Positions 17,171-64,000 of a stretch of DNA of 64,000 nucleotides are shown here, in pieces; the stretch's first letter is position 1, and each line of letters begins with the position of its first letter. A program made the position numbers and the translations under genes. Origin of the DNA: Callorhinchus milii. Taxonomy: Eukaryota. The stretch is from the NCBI RefSeq assembly GCF_018977255.1, contig NW_024704742.1, positions 1,054,001 through 1,118,000 on the forward strand. Direction: 5' to 3'. A model generated the notes under the pieces. It was not told the DNA's origin, did no database searches, and worked only from the letters and a program-made list of their open reading frames with translations.

Positions 17171-20039
17171 GCCAGTCTTGTGAATTCCTGGATGGCCGTG
17201 AAAGTCCAACCCTGACTGGAGATTGAACACGATTATCTCTGCTTTGGTCCCATGTTTCCAGATAGGAGTTTGCAATGGCGCACCTTGTGATAATGGTGCA
17301 TTCCATCTTGGGAGAGGAACATAAAACATCATCAGCGAGACCCAGGGATCCTTTCAGAAGTACTCAGCAGTACTGTAGCCCCCCCCGACCCCACTCGTGT
17401 TAGCTAGAGAAGTGCTAGCACTAGCTTGGGAGTAAGAGGGATCCAAGCTAGAAACACAAGAAGAGGTGATTAGTTCCAAAAACATACAATTACAGTAAAA
17501 GAAAACTTTGAAGCTAAAACTTCCGATCTTCATTTTGGGATCATTTACCTTTAATACTGTATCCGTAAGAATACGTTCCAGACAATCTCGTTAGAATCAT
17601 CACAGTCTCCAGTCATTGGCACTGTAAAAGGTCCACTTGCAGGAATTAATCATAATCAATATTTATAATTGGTTATTCAAAACAATCATTGTAAATCTCC
17701 AGAAATCGATACGGGAGGACCAGCAAAGATTTATTGCTTTGATGTGTGGCTTGAATTATGCCTCCTGGAAACTAACCTTTTATGGAGTTTCATCAAATAC
17801 AACGGCAAAGAAAACGTTTAGACACAAATATATAAAGTGCAGGTACCAATCAACTATAGGTATTAGAAATGCCATATTATTTCTGGTGAGATCCGCTTGT
17901 CACTTGACAGAAGGCTTCGTGCACGTTGGAACTAAAACTAAAGCTCTCTTCATAGAGTGTGACTGCATCGCTACTTCCAATTCGTGTTTTTTTTAAAAAA
18001 AATTGACACAACACAGTACTTTGTGCATTAGTGTGAAAGGGCTTTTAGTGCTCATTGCTGCAGTCAAGTCTAGAGAGGAGGGCGTTGTCTCATTAAGAAA
18101 GAGATATAAGGATGTTTCTTGCATTAGGAAAAGCACGTGGTTTCTTAATCCACATAATAAACCATGGTTATGTCATCTGGCCAACACGTGACAACAGTAT
18201 GTTCTCTGATATTCACACAATCTCTGATTGGCCGGTTAACAAGAAAGAGGCAATAGAGGCTTATTCCTGGGTACATCAGTGTCTTTTTTCAGTTTAATTC
18301 AAAGCCATTTCATCTCAGGTTACACTGAGAGTGAAATGATGCAAAAACATCTGATAAAAGGGTTTTTCCAAATCATTCTTACTGATTAGAGGCTGGTACA
18401 ATACTTAGTGTGTTGTATAAAATAATCCTTGCATTTGATATAGCACCTTATCACGTCTGCGAGACGTCTCAAAGTGCCTCACAGGATATACTGTAAAGTG
18501 AATTGACTCTATATTTTGTGGGCGAAACGTGGCAGCAAATTGCGCACAGCAGCATCCCACAAACTGTCGTGGATTGAAGTGACCAATATTTTATTATTAA
18601 TATATTATTATTATTGTGTTGGGATCTGTGTGTATTAAATACACAGGGTTACCTGTTTACCATCGAGGATTATTTTTAGAAATAGTGATGCAGTATCACA
18701 CTGTGATAGTTTGCTGCTACTGATTTCCTTTCACAAATGTGAAAAGACTATTTAATTTCCGGCAAAATAATTATTGATTTTGTTGAGTAATGCTATTTGA
18801 AAGTCTTATCAAACAATATTTGCATTCGGAAAAAAAAAATATCCAAAGCCAACTATAATTCATCATGTCTTGTTTACTATAATTTCAGTCGTGCAGTCGA
18901 AACATCTGGACACTAAATGGCATTTGCCAAGAATCCACTTCCAACTTCAAGCCTACAAATCTCTGGTACCTTTTATCTCCAAAGATGATCAAGAGTTCCA
19001 AAAGCAACACTGCCCTCTATAGCTGAGAGCATCCACATCGCGTTGAAATATACCTCTTTGCGTAATGTCAAGCAAGTGACTGGTAAAATTTCAGCTCACC
19101 AGAACTAGAAGTGGAAACCGAGCGGAAACAATTCAGAACTAGGAGTGGCAACGGTTTCTATGATAGGACTTGAAACCTGGAAGACTTCAAGTGCGAGCGC
19201 ACGGTGATCCAAAACAATCTTTTCACGTCGCTTGGAAGGTCAAGTTAGAAGTAAAGGAAAAGCCAATGCATTTGGGCTGGGGTTTTTTTTTTCGCGCAGC
19301 TTGTGAGATGCGTCACCCCCTCAGTCCTTGTTTGTCAAACACGGTGGAGTCTGCCAGTGCGGGAGAAATGCAGGCCAGCAAATGTCTGTAATAAAAAGAG
19401 AGCCAATATCAATTTCCTGTACAGTTTTAATTGAATTTCCACACTATGTGTTTCTTCACAGCCTCTGCCACTTTAAAGCGATTGATTGCCACGACACTGA
19501 CAGGATACCAAAGCTGTTTTTAACACCACTGACACCTCTATCCCTTTAACCCTTCGTGTGATGCTGAGCACGTCGCCAGAAAAAAGCATCGATGCCAAGT
19601 AAGGATAAGAAGTGTTGTACTGTTACGGTTTTGTAAAGACCACAGTAAGTACACACTTGTCACACCTCAACTGTCTTCTTTTCAACATTGTTTGCCTCAC
19701 TATCTCCATTGATTTCAAATGGAACTTTTGCATCTCCTGCATCTCAATTTCCTCTCCCAAACCAAACATTCATTTCCTGTCAGTCTGCCTGGGTCGCCTC
19801 TAGGTCAGAGTTGTGGGTAGAGGAGGACCACATTCTCAGGAAGTGATGTTAGTGGCGACCACATGGCTTGGAAAGCAGCCAATCTGGCACATGGGAAAGG
19901 AGTGAGCCTGCTGCTCAGTGAACGGGGTCCACACCGCAACGGTGCGGTGCCTGAATTGACTCTGTACGAAAAGGGCTACATTGTCGGATGCCACCAAACC
20001 ATCCACGATTTGAATGCTGCCACACATCTGGGCAGCTCT

Positions 20040-27365: not shown

Positions 27366-29721
27366 AGCTCTCATATCAATAGCGCTCACAAACCAGTACG
27401 TCTACAAAATCGTCAAAAAATTAAATGTCACCGCAAAATATTCAGCACAGTGGAGTAGGGCAGTGACAAACAGTTGTCATCAATGGAAGGTTACTATTAG
27501 CAAAAAACAAAGGATGTCCCTGTGTTGCATCATCATTGAGTGCATTCAAGGTACAAAGGTTAATTCGTTGCCGCAGCATTTGGACCAATGAGTGACAGAG
27601 TGTTATATTGCTCCACAGGCCGGGGAAATACACTTGAGGCATTTCTCCAGCCGATTGAGCCTCGTAAATCTGAAAGCTTCTTAAAATTAATCACTCGGCC
27701 TCACTCCACACCCCCGCGCACGCACACGGTCCCATAACTTCTGATCACGCTGTTTCCAAGAGAAAGCTGTAACACGCAGAGCACACAGGAGCGTCAATCT
27801 TCCCATAAAGTTTAGCAACAAACTGGATGGAAAAGATGTATTACCGTCAGTAAATAAAACGGAACCTGGATCGTTTCAAGGTGGCGATCTTGGCAGCCAT
27901 CTTCTCCGTACCTTGGCATAATTGATGAAGCCTCTTGTGAAGAGCAAGATTCCTGCAGGGGGATGGAAAACAGTGACACACGCAGTTAATGACTTCAACG
28001 CCACAGTCACTGTAGTTTGCCACACCCGTGACTTTCGCACTGCGTTGAGCGCTGTGGTTAACGTTTACGAAGACAGTTCTGGCGTGTCTTTTTTTTCAAA
28101 TAAACTGGAAAGGATGGACTGCAGGCACACTGCTGATCGTAATCTTTCCATTAGTTCTAGTGCCTTTCACATCAGGAGGACATCTCAAAGAGCTTCACAG
28201 AATTTAGTGTCAAGTAAATTTTGTGTATTTGTAGGCAAATTTTGCAGCCCTACTGCAGTTACCTTGTTATTTGTTTTTACACCATTGGATATTTCATGTA
28301 ACAACTAGAAATGATTTAACTTCTAAATCAAGTGAAAATATAGCAAATGTTTGGATGAGTGAGCAGAAGTTGATACATAAATAGGCCTTTGATGTTTATT
28401 GCTTGGGTGACCTTAATCCCAACATTCTCCTTCTCAAGAATAACAGAGGAGAGTATGTTTATCGACAATGTTAATGACACGTTAAGAAAAATAGGTGAGA
28501 GCCCTGTATGACTTAAATATCAATTGGAAAACAAACAGATTATTTCTGCATTAACAAAACAAAAAGCAGCAGTTAATGACCGCACAGGAGCAATATTGAG
28601 CATTTCTCACAAGATCGGGAATATAAAATAATGAATGCCCTTCAGTCCATTTGATCTCATCCTTCCAATATACGCACTCCACCATCTTCACATCACAGCA
28701 TCAAGTTATTTCTTAATGTCTGAAGCAGCTAAACCGGTGGAGATCCCTAGAACATATACAGATAAAGTTTGTGTGGAACTGTGGGCAATATATTGATTGG
28801 AATGTGAAGATGGTAGAGGAAAATTTTCAGAAATGTCACTGAAAATCCTTGTGACGACTTCAGGGATTGACACTCGCGCAATTTTGGTGGAGGAGGGAAT
28901 ATAGCAATGCACGATATTGACTCCGTGGTCCTCATAATTCAGAAGACCTAGCAAAAATAGTTGGAAGAAAGTTTATAACCTAAAGATAACCACCAAGATG
29001 AAGTAGTGAGACTGAAGTATAGAGAGACCACAGACATCTAGGCACACCAGAGAGATAGCAACAACAACCGGCAAGAAAAACATTCACTGTTTGTTCAAGA
29101 GCTCTGAGACACTACACCAGGTGAAGAGAAATATATAAATGTAAGTTCTTGTCGCTTGCATCTTCTTTCAGAAATCTCACAAACTAGAAGTCCACATGTC
29201 CAAACGTTGCACTTTTAAAAATTAGTAAATGATAATAATCCTTACATTGGATATAGGCCATTTGGCCATTTGATTTGGTTTGATTTGGCCATCCGCCAAA
29301 CGACTAACAACCGTGTGGACTAAGGAAACTTGCCTAACATTTCGCCCTTCCCGGGAATCGAACCCGAGTCCTCTTGTTTGCAAGGCGAGTTCTCTAACCA
29401 ATAAAAAACAGGACTCCACAAATGTAAAAATAGCATGGGAATAAACATAATCCAATGGTAGAGGGAGAGTGAGTGCTAAAAAAAATACGTTTTCATTAGG
29501 AAGAAGGTGTGAATTGCCTTCCCTGTTGCCTAGAAGACATATGAATGTATATGTGCATAAGATGCATAATCCTCCCCCATTGTATTTTAATTTTTACTGG
29601 TGATCATCTTCAAAGAGAAATCACTGTAGATCAAAAAAACTTTTCAACTTATAAACTCGAGCCGGATAGAAGTTTTTCAGGTGTGTTGTGTGCCGAGTCT
29701 ACTGCAGGATTTCATCATCCA

Positions 29722-54737: not shown

Positions 54738-54972
54738 TTGGAAATGGTTTCAAAGGGAAGTATTGAAAACACAGGAGACAGTTAGAAACCATCTTGGATA
54801 ATTATGACCATTCAGTTTTGAGGGAGGTTTAGCTCACAAATTTAGTCAGGACTCTGCAATGATTTTAATTGCAACACAAGTTCACATTGACATTTTCTAT
54901 ATTATCAGGAGATCAGAGCAGTTACGAACAAAGTAAACCTGTCAAAAGGTACGACAAGAGAATGTCACTCAC

Positions 54973-55039
54973 CAAGAGCAAAGAAAATCCACCAGAGCCA
55001 AACATTTTCTTCAAAATAGCTGATAAAATAGTCAGAGAA
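54973..55039 (-). CDS. NDFIP-like exon, luminal loop plus TM3
   Basis: ttcttttatttacag| ... |GTGAGT; 67 bp, phase 0 to 1. FSDYFISYFEENVWLWWIFFAL(G) vs NDFIP2 FSDYFTGYFNGQYWLWWIFLVL(G). Confidence 0.92.
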
Positions 55040-55107
55040 CTGTAAATAAAAGAATGCTTATATAAACTGCAATCCAATTGCAATATAAATTGAAATCCAT
55101 CCCAAAT

Positions 55108-55300
55108 ACAACAACAACAAAACTACACATGTAAAGCTCCTTTCATGTCGGGAGGACATCCCAAGGCGCTGGACAGTCAGAGTTTCGGACCCGAGCTGGG
55201 GGTTGGGATCGGGGAGGGTGGGTGGAGGGCAGGGGGGGTGAAGCAGGGTGATCGAACGTACGATCAAAGAGGAGGGTCTTGAGATGGATCTTGAAGGAGG
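55108..55300 (-). mobile_element. L2 3' fragment in the NDFIP-like intron
   Basis: acaacaacaac...tttcatgtcgggaggacatcccaaggcgctggacagtcag. Confidence 0.75.
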
Positions 55301-55883
55301 TGAGGATTATTATATTATGATGATGATTATTATTATCTGGAATTTTTTTCTACATGGGGTTTGAACCCACAATTTTCGGACTCGGAAGCCACAATGCTAC
55401 AAACCGAGCCGGGCTTGACACCCAAGTCTCACATGTCTCCAAGCGCTTAACAAGTATGATAGACAGGACCAACCAGGGAAAAGTGAATGTTTGGTTGGCT
55501 GGGAGCACAGGAGAAACTCCCTTCATTTTTCAAATAATACCATGGGATCTTTAATGTCCACTTGAAGGGCCCTCCAAAGCACAGGATCTCTGACAAGGCA
55601 GTGCTCTTTCAGCGAAAAATGTCAGCCTAGTCTATGAGCTCACAGTCCTTCTTGAAACTACAACCTTTTGATTCACAGGCGAGAGTGCTATTAACTGAGG
55701 CCCGGCTGACACCTATGTTTCACGTGTTCTCACACTTAACAAATACGATAAAAACAAGCAGAGAAAAGTGAACGTCTGGTTGTGATGCAACAAATCCAGT
55801 TTGAGAATGAATTGCATTAGGCAGGATGGCAATGTGGGAACCGCAGCACGTATCAAGGCAGTAACGAAGACATGTCCACTTAC

Positions 55884-56008
55884 CCTCACGATAAGGATCC
55901 ACTTAAGAAGTGAAAGGCCAAACCCAGAGATGGCACCATATCTGCCCGCAATGGTATTGGTTGAGCAGAAGGACAAAAAAAATCCAATCCAGTTGAAGAC
56001 GAAAGCAA
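55884..56008 (-). CDS. NDFIP-like exon, TM1-TM2
   Basis: ttcctttggtttttag| ... |GTAAGT; 125 bp, phase 1 to 0. AFVFNWIGFFLSFCSTNTIAGRYGAISGFGLSLLKWILIVR is near-identical to the NDFIP1/NDFIP2 core. Confidence 0.95.
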
Positions 56009-58324
56009 CTAAAAACCAAAGGAAGTGAAATGAATCATTAGTTTCGGGAAGGGTTTAAGCGGCTTTGAGAGGTAAAAAAAACAAGATTACATTTGTATCG
56101 TGCGTTTCACGAAACGTGGAATAGTGCACTGCAATGTGCGATGAGATCAGAAGATAATCACATTCAATAACAAGGACGTCTCCTCCGAGATCTACAAGGT
56201 GTCCACCAAGTCCTGTTATCTTTTTTATCCCCCTACACCGCACTGACCGACAACTGAAACACACGTGGAAGAATAATGATACTTGTACTTAGAAGTTCTT
56301 AATTCGGCACAAGTGTTTAACTGTACTTAGACGTCCAGAGGATCAGTGTGAGTGCCATCATTTTTATGGCAGATAATAATTTGTCACCGTGTTCATTGTG
56401 ACACTTCCATAACATGGATAGAGTGACGAGGGAAATGCATCGCTGACAACTTGTTTCAGCTCCTCCCTGGTCTCAAAGCACTGTTTTATAACGGGGGGGT
56501 AAGTAGGACTTTGTGGGCACCCTGTATTGTAGGACGGTTGCACAATTGTTTGACGTTCATTCCGTTCATTCCAGGTGCTTGGGAAGAGGAGGTACAGGCC
56601 ACACAACTGGCTCAACATTCAGCCAACCCACAGCATCATGGTGAACTGCATCTCTGGAGGAGTGTTTACATCGAGGTTGTTCACGGCATCTTATTTACCT
56701 TTACAGCCCCGTTGTATACTCCATGTGCCTTCTGCTTGTGCTAGCTTCCCCAACAGAGCTACCTACACTAATCCCACCATTGTCCCACAGTCAATTCACT
56801 TGACAGTCTATTCTGTGAAGCGCTTTGAAACGTCTCGAAGACGTGATAAGGCGCTGTATCCGATGCAAGGATTACTATTATTGATAGCTGAGCCTTCAGC
56901 AACTATTCCCCACCCATTAAAATACCCTCCGCCTGCGCCTACATCTCACCTCCTTCTCTATCTGTCTTTAAATCTCTTTCACTCTGTCTATGGTCACCTG
57001 CTCCCTCCTTCCCTGCTCCGAAACTGACATTGTCCTTGTGAAACGTGCCGAGAGATGATCCCACGTGAAGGCTGGTATATAATGTAAGTTGCTATTGTAC
57101 TGCTCCTTTGGATATCGTTCACGCTTCATCGACTGCACCCAATGGAGAGTGAGCCTGGTCAAACTCCTCTGATTTACAATCCGCTGGCATTGTTAAGTAA
57201 ATAGACACTGGATATGGCTGCCGTAATAAAATACTGCGACAGGTATTTGCTTTTAATAGTTAACAGAAAGAGGAGACGGTCATCTCAACTCTCTGGGCCC
57301 AATGCAGACTGATCTTATCTAAGCAAAGTTAGTGTTTTAATCCCCAAACCTATCCAATCTTCTTGCAAACAAAAGACTTTCCCTCTAGCCTCCAGCAATC
57401 GTGTTCTGTGCTCTCTTTCTCAGTCCTCCCTTTCCCCTGGTCTCTCAGCGTAGATTTACGCTGCTCTCAAATATCTGGCAGCCTTCTGTCTTAGAAGCAG
57501 ACACATAATAGATTCAGTTCAAGAATGGCTGTGAAAAATAATCTTAAATTATTCAAATATTGGGGTGAGAAAAGCTTGCATCTTTTTAAAAATGCCATGG
57601 CAACCTTGTCCTAAAGCAGGCGAGAGGGAAAAAAACATTCTCTAGAAGTCAGATTGATATTCAGCTCCAACCAGTCTGGAACCACTGTACACAAAGGTTC
57701 AGAAAATCCGTCCTTATGATAATGATAACGCTATTCACTGCAACTCTCCTTCCAATCATAGGCAAAACACGCAACAATTTCTAACCAGATTCCTTAATAA
57801 TGACTCTGAGCTGCAAATAAGGACTAAGGTGAATTATGTCACACAGACTCTGAAGGAGATCAGGTCAGAGTGGAGTTCCCGCAGCAGGTTGGTGTGACAT
57901 ATTTATGTTCCCTTCGGTGACTCGGATTCCTTATGAAAGAAACCCATTGGAGATTGGTATGTTTGAGGTTTCATTGTCTTAACATGTCAATGAATAAAAT
58001 TGAAGGTAACCACAGCATCGAAGCCCATTGCACAGTGTGAGGCAATAATGATAATAATAATAATAATGTTTGCGCCTGTTGTAGAGTTTATCACGTCAGC
58101 TCACCACTTTACAGTCTATCCTGAGATGCGTCTCAAGTGCATCACAGGATAGACTGTAAAGTGGTATGGTTGTGGAATGCACTTGACAGCAAGTGACGCC
58201 AAGGACATTATAACTGGATGTTTTGTTTTCCGAGGGAAAGCCGGCTCCCTTCTGAAATGACATGGATCAAAATCGGATTGTTTCATGGGTTCCTGTGAGA
58301 CAAACGACAGCAGGGTGAACTCAC

Positions 58325-58412
58325 TGAAAAAGGTCAGTAGAAACATGCAATCGTCTCCTAGGCTGAGCTGATCCTCTTCATCGGACCCATCTTCTACTAG
58401 GAAATCATCGTC
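58325..58412 (-). CDS. NDFIP-like (NEDD4 family-interacting protein) exon, acidic linker plus start of TM1
   Basis: caacag| ... |GTGAGT; 88 bp, phase 0 to 1. DDDFLVEDGSDEEDQLSLGDDCMFLLTFF(I) matches NDFIP1 DEDFVGRDDFDDADQLRIGNDGIFMLTFF(M). Confidence 0.88.
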
Positions 58413-59639
58413 CTGTTGTATTGAACAAAAATGACAAGCACATTAAATAGGACACATTAACTGACGAGGTCTTAAATAGCATGTGTGTCACAGTCTGCCT
58501 AGCTGCCCATTACTGCACAGCCATACTGTATATGTTAGTACCCCCGGCTTGCCTCTCCCTCCCTCCCTCCCTCCCTCCCTCCCACACCCGTTTAAATAGC
58601 AGTCAATTTAGAATTCGCTATGTATTAGAATTCACTGTGCTATGTGCCCAGGCAGACGGCATAGTAGAAATGAGATCTGGCTGAAGGTGCACTCACGTAT
58701 TCGCAGAAGATAATTGGCTTGCCATTAAACTCCATCACCTAAAAGTCACCTTGTCAAGTTTCACATCGTTTTTGTTCGGTGGAGGCAGACAGCCATGTTG
58801 GGTCAAACTAAGCTACAGTACAACAGAGGGTGGCAAGCAGAGAAACCAATAACAATCATGCCACCCCCTCCACGTAACTCGCTGGGTTAAGACTTGCTGC
58901 CTCCAGTTTTGAACACAGGAAAACATGCCTGACATCAATCTATGTTGTGCGATGCATCCATGTCCTGCTTGGAATGCAGCGTTGCCGCAAGCAACCTATT
59001 TCTGATTCTCGGTGATGGATGAGCACATCTACTCTTAACATTCTGGATTCGGTCCATATCTTTAACGTTGATATTTTTCTAACACATAGCACTGCTACTT
59101 GAGGCTGAAGTAACACAGGGACAACATTTGCTGAGCGTATCAACTTCCCTGTTCCGTGCCGCCTGGGTTTCACAGCAAAGGATTAAACTGGGAGTGAAAA
59201 TAAACTGGGAGTGTAAATAAATCCAACACAAAGTTTGATTCAATTATACTGTATTCAATTATACTGAAATTATAGCCTATTTAATACTAGTGTTGGAGCT
59301 GCCACCTCTGTGCTAATACAAAGCCTCTTAGGATTGCATCAGATTTTCGCTGGAGGAACACATTAATCACACGAAGTGAACGGTGGGATGAAACAAAATG
59401 ATTTAGGAGGAACCAATCCTGGTTTCTATTTGCAGTAAGGTAGGCATTCGGGGGAAGTAACAAAGATGTTTTCACTGGCTGAGTTCCAGTGGCTAATAAT
59501 GAGATCCCACTTTAGGACCGTGTATTTAGAGAGACAGGATTTGTAAAGTGGCTATTAAATTGCAGCTGAAGTGTACACTGTGTATATGGAATGTAAAACC
59601 TGCAGAATTAAATAAAAACGGCACAGTCACAAACAGTTG

Positions 59640-59976
59640 CCTCATCAGGAGGAGCATTCCTAATGCTCCCACCCATTGGAGTGGATGTTGCTGACTTGCC
59701 ATCTTTTGGATAAGGTGTTAAGCCAAAGTCGCGTCTGCCTGTTCAGGTGGATGTTAAAGATCCCATGGCACTATTCGAAAAGAGAGAGTTTTTTCCCGGT
59801 GTCCCGGTCAACCAATTGGTTATTCACTTCATGGCTGTTTGTGGGACATTGCTGAGTGCAAATTGGCTGCTGGGTTCACCCAAAAGTCTACACTACGCTT
59901 TACAGTATATTCTGCAAAGTGTTTGAGATGGGTTGATAATGTGGTAAGGTGCTTATATCAAGTGAAAGGATTATTA
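59640..59976 (+). mobile_element. Older Deu-domain SINE (DeuSINE/SacSINE-like)
   Basis: ggtggatgttaaagatcccatggcactattcg...cccggtgtcc...gctgtttgtgggacattgctg...aaattggctgc is the Deu core. Other copies lie near 3880-4060, 5650-5960, 12880-13245, 26120-26290, 30110-30400, 39560-39870 and 55480-55710. Confidence 0.75.
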
Positions 59977-60009
59977 CACATTATAAACTAGGGTTCTTCA
60001 ATCTTGAAA

Positions 60010-60245
60010 GTAGACATCTCAAACCTATGATATATATTTAAATGGGTTGAAAAGTAAACCCAGAACAATACTTTAGGACGCACTGAGACAGTGGAATAAG
60101 AAGGCACAGGTTTCGAGTTGGAAAGGGCAGATAAAAATAAGTATTTATTTATCCAGAAGGTAATTAATGAATGGAACAGGGTTGCCAGGAAGGGTGGTGG
60201 AGACCTGGACACTGGAGTCATTTATAAAATAGCTTGATGCAGTGG
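60010..60245 (+). mobile_element. CR1 LINE fragment
   Basis: Homologous to the 16855 and 62905 copies (aaatgggttgaaaagtaaacccaga...). Confidence 0.65.
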
Positions 60246-60681
60246 TGAGAACAACTTGTATTTATATAGTGTCCTTCACATAGGAGAATGTCTTGGAGTG
60301 TTTCACAGGGATGAGATTGGACAGAGAGCAAGAGAGGAAGTGGGAGGTGACCTTAGGCTCCGACTAAGAAGTAAGTTTTGAGGTGGGATTTGAAGATAGA
60401 GAAAGAGGGAGCGAAGCAGAGGGATAAAGACAGGGAGTTCGCCCCGGCTCAGGAATGAGATTGCCGAGACGTAGAGGATTGAATCGGTTTTGACGCATCA
60501 GTTGCCAAGCACATGACAAGAGTACAGAAAAAGTGTGTCTGACCAGAGAGCGCGTCTGAACGGAGAGAAGGAAAGAGATGCGAGCAACGACTTTTTACAA
60601 TAGAATCAAAAATCGAACAACTTAGGAAACGGGAAAAATTTAATGAGCAGGTTGTGGCTCAACCTGGTTTATTTGCTCCTG

Positions 60682-60701
60682 TGCGGCACCAGATGGCGCT
60701 G
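60682..60701 (+). promoter_or_regulatory. Candidate CTCF site between the HERC 3' end and the NDFIP-like exons
   Basis: tgcggCACCAGATGGCGCTg closely fits the CTCF core CCASYAGRKGGCRS. Confidence 0.55.
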
Positions 60702-60949
60702 AGTGACTAGTGTTCAGTTGCTTCATTGCACAGAGTGTCCACAAAGACCTGTTACCACCTAACCCCCCACCACCCCATCCCGTTACAAAACAACGATACG
60801 AGACCTATCTTCTGGACGTCTGAACATCTAAATACAGCTAAACGCTTGAATACAATTAAGTACTTCTGAATACAATTATCAGCAGTCTTGAGTATGACTT
60901 CAGGTACTGTTCTTGGTTCCAATGTCCCCTTCTAATGTCTTCGACCGTG

Positions 60950-61285
60950 TCGTTAACCCCACAAGTCAAAGCCCTGAGGGGTAGAGTGATCCTAGCTGGA
61001 CAAACAGTGATATCAATGGCAAGCTGTGTGGTTTTAGCTGGTCAGACTCCAGCAGTTACCCCAACGCACACTCTGGAGTCCCCAAGCCTTGAGTCTTGCC
61101 TAATGCTTTCAGGAATTAGGTCAGCAGGATGCGTCCCTCCGGGGAGAGAGAGAGGGGGCTCATTGCATTCCGACAATCTATCTCTGCAATTTCCATGTGT
61201 AGGTGGGAGGCCTGGAAGTCTCAGCTTGGCTTGGATACCCTTAAGCACGGTGATGGGTTTCCGCATGTGTCAGACACCCGGCTGT
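60950..61285. repeat. Unclassified interspersed repeat, copy 2
   Basis: Colinear similarity to 3080-3440. Confidence 0.7.
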
Positions 61286-61354
61286 CGATTTTTTTTTTTT
61301 ACAGGATCTACCATGTAATCCTCAATATTTCATTGCGTAATCTCCAATATGCGG

Positions 61355-61505
61355 TTTATTTCTATTGGAAGATATTACAATCTAACACAGGTTTACCAAT
61401 TAACTGCAAATAAGTTTATTTACAGACAGAAAAGTAATATAATAATCAGGCACACAGGGCCACATTCTCAACACCTCCTGTGCAAACGTCCTTTTTAGAT
61501 TTATT
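61355..61505 (-). other. Candidate polyadenylation signals of the HERC gene
   Basis: Three AATAAA hexamers on the minus strand (61355-60, 61415-20, 61500-05), 0.65-0.8 kb after the stop codon. Confidence 0.35.
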
Positions 61506-62162
61506 ACTAACTAATCCGGTATTTATGGAGTCAGCGGTGAGCAATCCAGTACCATAACCTTGCACAATTTCCAAAAGTAAAACAAAAAAAGGTGGCTCAT
61601 GTGTAGCCATTGAGCACATTGCACTTATCCCACTCGGCTTTATGCTTCAAAGCAGAGGGTTCAGAAAAATACAGCAATTGTCAGGAATCATTACGGCATT
61701 ACTATAGAGACTAGAAGAATACAAATTACTACCACAGTCATCAGCCCACACAAGTAAGATAGAAGAAAAACAGCAGTTTTTGTCCATTGACCAGGTGCCT
61801 CCCGACATGAAAGGCGTTATACAAATGTAATTTTGTTGGTGATGGTGGTGTTGTTGTTGTTGCAGAATTAACAAGAGGTGAGTAGGAAGAGTCCTGTGCA
61901 TAAGTCATATGTCTTTATATCAATTCCCATTTATGCTTTGCAGTAGTGTGGGCAATTGATCACAAAATTCACTCTGCCTTAGCCAAGTGTGTTAGCATTG
62001 AAAATTGATAACTAACTGAGAATCATTCCTTTGTAAATGTATATACAACAGTTTGTGTGCTAAAAAGAAATGAGGCTTGTGCCGGCTCCTCTACATAATA
62101 TTTCGATTGCAAATTCTTCGAATGGTTTAAATGTTTGAAGAAACAATCTCCGGTTACAGGTA

Positions 62163-62377
62163 TTACTGAATACCAAATACTTCGTATGACTCAATTGCAC
62201 GAAGGAACCTTTTTCTTAGTTTCCGAATATTGCTGTATCTGGGCAGATCCAAGGTCTTGTTGCAGGTGTGGCCAATAGGATAGTATAAATCCGGGTTAAA
62301 TATTCTTAACTCGTTAATGACGATTTTGAGGGTTCCCATTCCTCCTACTGGAATCCTATCGCATCCCGTCAGGAAGG
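62163..62377 (-). CDS. Terminal coding exon of a small HERC-family HECT E3 ligase (catalytic C-lobe)
   Basis: Pyrimidine-rich acceptor tctctttctcatccttag|. Translates (A)FLTGCDRIPVGGMGTLKIVINELRIFNPDLYYPIGHTCNKTLDLPRYSNIRKLRKRFLRAIESYEVFGIQ*, which has FLTG.DRIP, the catalytic HTC..LDLP.Y and Phe at -4. The exact paralog cannot be resolved. Confidence 0.92.
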
Positions 62378-62904
62378 CTAAGGATGAGAAAGAGACATAG
62401 ACATTAATAATCCAAGATATGAATGTATCCAAGGTAAAGTATTGTTCGGTTATGCATCTATTCACTATTCTTTTTTCTTGGCGTAATTCCCCCCCGTTTT
62501 CCTTCCCCCCCACTGACTGTGTTGATAGTTACCAGGCTGTAGTTCCATTGACACAAACAGCCTTTGCTGACAGTGGGAGAGAGGGGCTATCAAATTCCAT
62601 TTTGCTTCTTAAATAATTATTTCTGTACAACTAGATTCCACAGTACAAAGACGTCGCGCAAAGACTGCATTGCTTATTGATTGACGTATAAGGTCCCAGC
62701 GAATGTTGCCAAGCTATTTGACCGTAAAGTGGGACTGTATAATTCTGTCCCCGCCCAACAGTCACACTCAGAAACTTACATTTCTATGGCTTGCATTTCC
62801 TTCATATGAAAGGAACATCTCGCAGTACTTTCCAAAATGTGATTGATTTGAAATAGAGCGAGTGCTGTAATTGAGGCAAACGCTACAGTTCAGCGATCAG
62901 TCTC

Positions 62905-63230
62905 GAGAGAAGATGACTCAAAGGGGGAACCTCATAAAAGTGCATCAAATTTCAAATGGGATTAAAAGAGTAAACCCATATCAATACTTTAGGATGTATC
63001 AAGACAGGAGAATAAGTGAACATGGGTTTAGAGATGTAAAAGGGAATTTCAGGACGGACACAGGATGTTTTTCTTTATGAATAAGGGTAAGCAACAACTG
63101 GAACTCATTTCTTGGAAAGGTGGTAGAGACCAGACCACTGGACTCATTTCAAAAGCAGCTTGACACAGTGATGGGGATTGTGAGGATAAGGCTTCTGAGG
63201 GATGAGATCAGTTGGGCCAAACAGCCTTCG
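62905..63230 (+). mobile_element. CR1 LINE 3' fragment in the last HERC intron
   Basis: RGNLIKVHQISNGIKRVNP.QYF...KGNFRTD. Confidence 0.75.
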
Positions 63231-63667
63231 AAGAACAAAATGTGTAGCTGATTCATTTGATTGCGGTGAGTTTAGATTGGGACTGAATGTAAAACTGAAC
63301 AACCGGGTGAAGGACTCCACATTTCTTTCAAATAGCAGCAGGACATCCCTTAAGGTGCACCTGATTTACAAGGCAGACAGCACCAAAATTACTGATGCAA
63401 ACAAAATAAAATCCTGATAAACTTGTGTTCATGGCTATATTTATCTGTGTGGTGATTCTACATAGGTGAACGTTAAGTAAAAAATTCCACAAAAATATAC
63501 TTTACGGAGCATCAGAAATTTCACTCAAATATTTATTTTTTTTGTTGACAACACAGCTGTATTCCTGCCACTTTCAAATGAAATATGCATCTGAGAATAA
63601 ACAGCTCTCCATGAAAGCACTACATACATATCAGCTCTACATAGTTCAAAAATGTAAGACAACTTAC

Positions 63668-63767
63668 CAAGAAAATTCTTCTTCTTTTTCTTTGGCAGCT
63701 GATGAAACATGGTCCAAAAATCCACGATGTATTGGTCACTTTTTGTGTACCCTGTGTAACTTGCTTG
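63668..63767 (-). CDS. Penultimate coding exon of a small HERC-family (HERC3/4/5/6-like) HECT E3 ubiquitin ligase
   Basis: Acceptor ...tgctaacag| and donor |GTAAGT; 100 bp, phase 0 to 1. Translates QASYTGYTKSDQYIVDFWTMFHQLPKKKKKNFL, matching the HECT C-lobe pattern Y.gY....p.I..FW.vF..l..ekKk.FL. Splices in frame to the 62377 exon. Confidence 0.9.
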
Positions 63768-63994
63768 CTGTTAGCAAACAATAATTTATAATTGACATGA
63801 AATACAAATGTCTTATGTTGAAATATCTCAGTTTTAAAATTAAAACAAATGTTGTCAAAACAAATCTAAACCAGATTTGAGGACTAACTACGGTATGTGT
63901 GTTTTGGGATCCTCGTTAAGCCACACTTGAAGTGTGCTGTGTTTTGTCCTTACAGCTTCTTACTCTCAGAGTTTAGTCTCTGGATCCAACTCAC

Positions 63995-64000
63995 TTTCAC
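63995..64000 (-). CDS. Possible 3' end of the preceding HERC exon (truncated by the window edge)
   Basis: GTGAAA|GTGAGT consensus donor. Would be phase-0 compatible with the 63767 acceptor (227-bp intron). Only 6 bp are visible. Confidence 0.35.

Follow-up and report, generated by a model that had tools for sequence, protein, structure and literature searches.

Results

Organization of the locus

The window analysed in the current work is a stretch of 64,000 nucleotides of the Callorhinchus milii genome (C1:1054001-1118000; genome of 991.5 Mb), and positions are given as window coordinates unless preceded by a C number. It contains, both on the minus strand, the 3' end of a small HERC ligase gene and an NDFIP-like gene, the features of which are collected in Table 1. 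The HERC stop codon (TAA, 62165-62163) and the NDFIP acceptor (58413/58412) are separated by 3,750 bases, in agreement with the spacing of 3.7 kb given by the initial annotation, which had also placed the HERC 3' UTR in this interval, as is now supported by contigs and by three AATAAA sequences. The CTCF-like motif proposed for the same interval is indeed present, but at chance level. Pfam analysis of three exons recovered the HECT domain and the NEDD4_Bsd2 domain (PF10176), the latter in the 125-base exon with 55.5 bits against a Pfam cut-off of 24.7, the 88-base exon alone giving no match. The protein encoded by the NDFIP-like gene has three hydropathy peaks, and its low-confidence structure model (mean pLDDT 59.9) contains three long helices.

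Table 1 Features of the HERC and NDFIP-like genes in the window
Feature	Position	Strand	Evidence
Terminal coding exon with stop codon, small neighbouring HERC ligase gene (first of four in tandem)	62163..62377	-	Pfam HECT, E 2.7e-16; joint 62377-63668 in 4/4 runs; tblastn mapping
HERC 3' UTR, three AATAAA (61505, 61420, 61360)	61255..62162	-	Contigs of runs X5, X6, X7 and X8
CTCF-like motif, chance-level	60686..60699	+	1 match with 1 mismatch vs 0.65 expected
PY-less NDFIP first exon: leader of at least 43 bases, then 13 codons (58735-58697) MEFNGKPIIFCEY, phase-0 donor GTGAGT	58697..58778	-	Contig of run X5
88-base exon, coding for an acidic stretch and the beginning of the first hydrophobic helix	58325..58412	-	AG/GT ends; X5 joints on both sides; equal size in both paralogues
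125-base exon, NEDD4_Bsd2 core	55884..56008	-	Pfam PF10176, E 9e-15; joints in X5 and X6
67-base exon	54973..55039	-	Joint 55039-55884 in X5 and X6; AG/GT ends
Last coding exon after 27-kb intron, frameshifted, stop 27878-27876	27845..27952	-	No indel in runs X1, X2, X5 and X6
Start of final (3' UTR) exon, traced part only	19330..19385	-	Tails of database models P0001, P0123 and P0124 map behind AG; database models only, no reads

The sixth-equivalent intron of the NDFIP-like gene (27953-54972) measures 27 kb, the corresponding introns of the two paralogues described below being approximately 0.7 kb and 6 kb long, and alternative terminal or internal exons of database models map within it at about 48090, 43810, 42225 and 38270.

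The HERC gene of the window belongs to a set of four tandem small HERC genes at C1:1116166-1233571 (window position 62166 onward), three of which are minus-strand genes, the remaining one being encoded by the plus strand in head-to-head orientation. The last HECT exons of the other HERC genes are only 42-51% identical to that of the HERC gene in the window. In their RCC1-like halves, by contrast, the first two genes are near-identical in places (85-98%), which may reflect recent duplication or gene conversion. Between 61606 and 62119 of the HERC 3' UTR, six single-letter differences and small indels distinguish the runs from the assembly and are most simply explained as alleles. The HERC-NDFIP adjacency is known from the Callorhinchus milii genome only, the HERC search having returned the chimaera protein alone (one of 19 candidates). 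In most vertebrates HERC3/5/6 are located between FAM13A and PIGY-PYURF according to a report that also describes elephant-shark HERC copies and leaves NDFIP unmentioned in its main text (PMC6002735). Beyond the HERC cluster, none of the 140 open stretches scanned (out of 827) scored above the cut-off, and a search for the PYURF family gave no match.

The first exon of the NDFIP-like gene

Contigs from four sequencing runs of RNA type (X5-X8; their RNA status is a software guess, and none of the runs listed is registered as RNA) were aligned to positions 54900-64000. A contig of 295 bases from X5 is composed of segments of 125, 88 and 82 bases which join 55884-56008 to 58325-58412 and then to 58697 upward (CT..AC joints), so that the 58412 acceptor, at which a junction check had been proposed, is entered from 58697 by an exon that lacks a PY motif. 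Among the joints listed, the 58697-to-58412 joint was seen in one of the four RNA-type runs (X5) and the joint between the 125- and 67-base exons in two. The small candidate first exon of the initial annotation (about 58697-58738) is thus real, but its coding part begins at the ATG at 58735, the three bases in front (58738-58736) being GTG, with an in-frame TAG located further 5'. The 5' limit of this exon at 58778 corresponds to the end of the contig rather than to a mapped transcription start, and the exon occurs only once in the genome. The leader region contains two short upstream frames that begin with ATG, of one and eleven codons (58766 and 58796, respectively), which could damp translation.

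The 125-base, 67-base and last coding exons are covered by a 755-base record of X6 (depth 5.77) in two alignments, and since its positions in the record run on from one alignment to the other, it is taken to be one contig spanning three exons across 27 kb. The resulting spliced frame is identical to database protein P0002 (131 residues). Among the rows listed for X7 and X8 there is no cover of the NDFIP exons, which is evidence neither way; among the contigs listed none bridges HERC and NDFIP, the HERC contigs stopping at or above 61255.

Search for PY motifs in the gap, upstream and genome-wide

The minus strand of the gap between the two genes contains three [PL]PxY strings (PPTY at 61210, LPHY at 59947 and LPVY at 59211), a number within chance, given that 300 shuffles contained 1.2 such strings on average and that three were reached in 13% of them. 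None of them can be spliced in frame, PPTY having no GT before the stop, and LPHY and LPVY being followed by phase-2 GT only where phase 0 is needed; the absence of a spliceable PY exon from 58413..62162, noted by eye in the initial annotation, is thereby upheld. In this assessment only GT presence and phase were used, the splice-score matrix having assigned low scores (1.8 and 1.0) to two true donors.

The NDFIP homology search that had been suggested for the upstream sequence revealed no PY exon in the 200 kb upstream of the gene, either by motif scan or among the tblastn matches listed, while the same searches recover the PY exons of both paralogues. Genome-wide, the NDFIP1 PY exon used as query matched the paralogues and one weak candidate only. 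The latter, at C1:109.198 Mb (E 0.39, two stops), was considered as a stranded PY exon and rejected as a chance match: it encodes no PY motif, does not resemble the exons of the paralogues at the DNA level, and sits on the opposite strand of an apparent exon of another gene. The canonical feature of two or three N-terminal PPxY/LPxY motifs is absent from the protein encoded in the window, as it is from the N-terminus of every orthologue examined, and present in both paralogues.

These results bear on the possibility that PY exons located far upstream, on the other side of the HERC cluster, are joined to the gene by splicing and that the short form is one isoform among others. An AG at 58743/58742, before the GTG-ATG, could accept an upstream phase-0 exon; the joint evidence is confined to the joints listed, 49 further joint rows being in existence; and other N-termini are found in some ray models and one shark model (P0005, P0010, P0011, P0145 and P0146). 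However, the X5 contig runs unspliced through this AG, including the in-frame stop there, no PY exon was found in the upstream 200 kb by motif scan or among the tblastn matches listed, nor, apart from the paralogues and the one chance match, in the genome, and none of the alternative N-termini carries a PY motif, which makes such an isoform very improbable.

Conservation in cartilaginous fishes

By cluster look-ups and sequences, models starting with M[ED]FNGKPIIFCEY were found in 20 of the 21 cartilaginous-fish species examined. The model from Heterodontus starts differently, and additional isoforms with different starts exist in two Mobula species; none of these carries an N-terminal PY motif. 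Twelve of the 13 positions of this first peptide are invariant in 18 sequences (chosen for having that start), the later segments being less so (9/29, 35/42, 13/22 and 10/16 positions in 16 sequences).

A search with the 125-base exon retrieved 787 proteins, the top 12 of the 120 listed being cartilaginous-fish models of 127-172 residues. Residues 1-40 gave 13 matches among 14 candidates (restricted to lengths of 77-245), all from cartilaginous fish. A profile search of 1.84 billion representatives yielded 409 matches, and among the best 150 of these, five match from position 1 and all five belong to the PY-less family. Within the residue-1-40 search and these best 150 of 409 profile matches, no bony-vertebrate orthologue was seen. 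A PY string is also absent from 31 of 126 further representatives; on inspection these proved to be NDFIP1/2 fragments, NDFIP1/2 models with aberrant N-termini or models from invertebrates, and the peptide occurs in none of them.

The shark and ray orthologues are intact, comprise 140 residues and end in an aromatic C-terminal tail; in sharks, too, several alternative endings occur. Six shark proteins from five genera (P0007, P0128, P0131, P0133, P0135 and P0157) carry an alternative ending with LPAY, YPEY or FPEY near the C-terminus, a sequence that may represent one PY-like motif gained anew or may face the lumen. The C-terminus of NDFIP2 is described as luminal in one study (PMC5606929), and the shark tail, if likewise luminal, would be beyond the reach of a ligase.

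Searches of the ESM Atlas returned PF10176 clusters only, and no solved structural relative was found by sequence (one match, E 5.5). The low-confidence model is disordered up to residue 28 and helical thereafter (pLDDT <50 for residues 5-31); a fold search with it found generic helical bundles only (best Z 8.4), and a complex prediction for the NDFIP1 core with the PY-less protein, run without alignments and with an uncertain partner fold, scored 0.00, which speaks neither for nor against such a complex. We regard the structure and conservation of the PY-less NDFIP gene as highly probable, and the first option of the initial annotation, a PY-less membrane-only NDFIP, stands as to structure (X5 joint; conservation in chimaera, sharks and rays), its decoy part being an interpretation considered below.

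Paralogues, synteny and origin

Three NDFIP genes are present in the genome, namely the PY-less gene on C1 and those on C4 and C13, both of which carry PY exons. Core exons of 88, 125 and 67 bases are common to all three loci, and at each a Sprouty gene is located 30-260 kb downstream of them, annotated as SPRY1 on C1 and SPRY2 on C4 and taken by us to be SPRY4 on C13, a pattern indicative of paralogous blocks. On C1, the accession order is HERC3, then the NDFIP-like models, then SPRY1. A fourth Sprouty gene (C15:3042324-3042659, annotated SPRY3/2) is present on C15, where no NDFIP was detected; a fourth NDFIP duplicate seems to have been lost.

Upstream of both paralogues, in head-to-head orientation, lies a multi-exon gene with a CCCH finger; the two are mutually alike, are the only two copies found in the genome and are presumably RBM26/27. 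These RBM26/27-type genes were missed by a PWI search. On C1, their place is taken by the four small HERC genes.

The main tree was built from the 109-residue core (31 rows, tail removed); an earlier tree, for which 67 of 121 rows had been dropped for want of a full core and duplicates then removed to leave 33 rows, was set aside as the frameshifted tail had been kept in it. In the core tree the PY-less family forms one clade (100/100) outside NDFIP1 and NDFIP2, weakly sister to NDFIP1 (87/81). In an AU test from which six long or duplicate rows were omitted, nesting with chimaera NDFIP2 was rejected (p-AU 0.003) and nesting with chimaera NDFIP1 was not (0.12). The core of the PY-less chimaera protein is identical to chimaera NDFIP1 at 83 and to NDFIP2 at 79 of 109 positions, as compared to 89 of 109 between NDFIP1 and NDFIP2. 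A divergent PY-bearing protein considered as a further family type (P0220) was discarded, being a mormyrid NDFIP2-like sequence that groups with NDFIP2.

The third gene probably represents a copy left by genome duplication and since deprived of its 5' half; synteny is what carries this claim, because the tree does not reject a late NDFIP1 duplicate. Such a copy would have arisen in the early vertebrate genome duplications; a deletion or rearrangement would then have taken the 5' half together with the head-to-head RBM26/27-type neighbour before the chimaera-shark split, and a new first exon would have been recruited before chimaeras and elasmobranchs separated. It had been proposed that the 5' exons lie beyond HERC or are lost. 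The searches described above found no such exons within 200 kb or, beyond the paralogues, genome-wide, and the proposal survives as an origin story only, because the HERC genes occupy the place of the paralogues' RBM26/27-type genes.

Wear of the chimaera copy

The frameshift in the last coding exon is supported by four runs from two studies, two of genomic type and two of RNA type, none of the four showing an indel relative to the assembly. It costs the last 18 residues only, giving a product of 131 residues, and the old tail is still legible in another frame, where it is identical to two shark tails at 14 of 18 positions and to a ray tail at 11 of 18. Since this identity is similar to that of the core (90/109), the frameshift is probably recent. 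The terminal branch of the chimaera copy, tail excluded, measures 0.27 as compared to 0.017 and 0.02 for chimaera NDFIP1 and NDFIP2, i.e. it is more than 10 times longer, and the chimaera copy is less constrained than the shark and ray copies.

The frameshift, seen in all four runs examined, the long branch and at least four other endings of database models inside or across the 27-kb intron would also be expected if the family were functional in sharks and rays and the chimaera copy were becoming a pseudogene. Against this, the reading frame stays open over 131 codons and takes in every hydrophobic segment, each splice site is canonical, no change has occurred in the first exon, and alternative endings are also found in sharks. 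Moreover, transcripts whose stop codon lies within 50-55 bases of the last junction generally escape decay, and the frameshift stop, about 31 bases before it, is predicted to do so. We hold such a fate to be unlikely, and it is compatible with a decoy role at the level of the family. The decaying pseudogene of the initial annotation accordingly fails for the family as a whole, and what remains of it is the wear of the chimaera copy.

Discussion

The gene described here shares with vertebrate NDFIP1 (N4WBP5) and NDFIP2 (PF10176) the membrane core, the 88/125/67 exons, 72-76% identity over 109 residues, the SPRY linkage and, in its shark and ray forms, the aromatic tail at the C-terminus. It differs from both in lacking the N-terminal arm of about 100 residues that bears three PY motifs, for which a 13-residue peptide is substituted, and in being linked to SPRY1 without a head-to-head RBM26/27-type neighbour. 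The window gene and its orthologues correspond to RefSeq/UniRef models named 'NEDD4 family-interacting protein 1(-like)' (e.g. XP_007900732, XP_078395867 and XP_051866092), automatic names which leave the PY loss unmarked and do not separate these proteins from true NDFIP1 (C13). In the literature covered, at abstract level and mainly open-access, nothing on a PY-less or third NDFIP was found. The PY-less NDFIP is a real, conserved and apparently undescribed variant, which belongs to the NDFIP family by sequence yet fails the PY test by which this family is defined.

The simplest reading of a third NDFIP whose PY exons are replaced by a 13-codon exon is that of a stable, client-binding competitor, a decoy unable to recruit NEDD4-family ligases, which we advance tentatively and at somewhat below an even chance. 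The PY-less protein would be made and would reside in Golgi/endosome membranes, would still bind channels and transporters like NDFIP1/2, and, by occupying these clients or by thinning the local PY array, would lower client ubiquitination. Loss of NEDD4-family ligase binding and disinhibition is predicted, whereas client binding by the PY-less core and the Golgi/endosome location are what we infer by analogy with engineered proteins. The PY-free human NDFIP2 fragment 203-336, of which the natural protein is almost a copy extended by 13 residues, bound AQP2, and PY mutants neither recruited NEDD4/NEDD4L nor raised AQP2 ubiquitination (PMC5606929). PY mutants did not lower Robo1 and kept their localisation, the Ndfip1 PY mutant accumulating and PY-mutated Ndfip2 retaining some Robo1 effect (PMC6913780). 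A triple PY mutant did not disinhibit WWP2, all three motifs contributing (PMC12720080), activation requires a dense local PY array (PMC5892558), and TRESK current was unchanged by a PY mutant (PMC11355008). Such PY-mutant or N-truncated NDFIP1/2 likewise present a core without ligase recruitment, but they are laboratory constructs, while in the natural protein the core has diverged and a conserved peptide peculiar to it is added.

Several observations weigh against a decoy. In the passages covered, PY mutants were inert and none was reported as dominant-negative (e.g. PMC11355008); conservation is highest in the new peptide, which a pure decoy does not explain; the core has diverged further than the paralogues have from each other; five shark genera have an xPxY-type tail; a late NDFIP1 duplicate is not rejected; and the joint to the first exon comes from one of four runs of presumed RNA type. 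Because a mere competitor needs no invariant peptide, the constancy of 12 of its 13 positions even in the fast-evolving chimaera copy favours a rewired adaptor, in which the peptide would dock a non-WW partner (a trafficking coat, a kinase or a ligase, e.g. the small HERCs), or a co-adaptor, which would deliver clients to PY-bearing NDFIP1/2 and so promote ubiquitination. The four adjoining HERC genes are consistent with this, as are paired membrane adaptors that activate WWP2 only together, as described in one report (PMC12720080). However, the peptide had no match outside the family among the candidates of the residue-1-40 search, its region is modelled as unstructured at low confidence, its conservation could act at the DNA level (promoter overlap), and HERC adjacency comes from the chimaera genome alone, away from the usual place of HERC3/5/6. 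We therefore view an adaptor role as possible yet somewhat unlikely. Its most specific form, in which rearrangement cut off the NEDD4-recruiting arm and a newborn, near-invariant 13-residue docking peptide couples NDFIP clients to a non-WW partner, possibly the adjoining small HERCs, appears improbable.

PY motifs are what defines the NDFIPs, and null controls are made by mutating them. That a PY-less paralogue has been retained in nature since chimaeras and sharks split, more than 400 million years ago, implies that selection can act on the membrane core by itself. The PY-less NDFIP offers a ready reagent for finding partners of this core and for probing whether antagonists are built into NEDD4-family activation at membranes. 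It also provides a clean case of a duplicate that survives the loss of its 5' half by means of a new first exon, with the chimaera lineage now relaxing.
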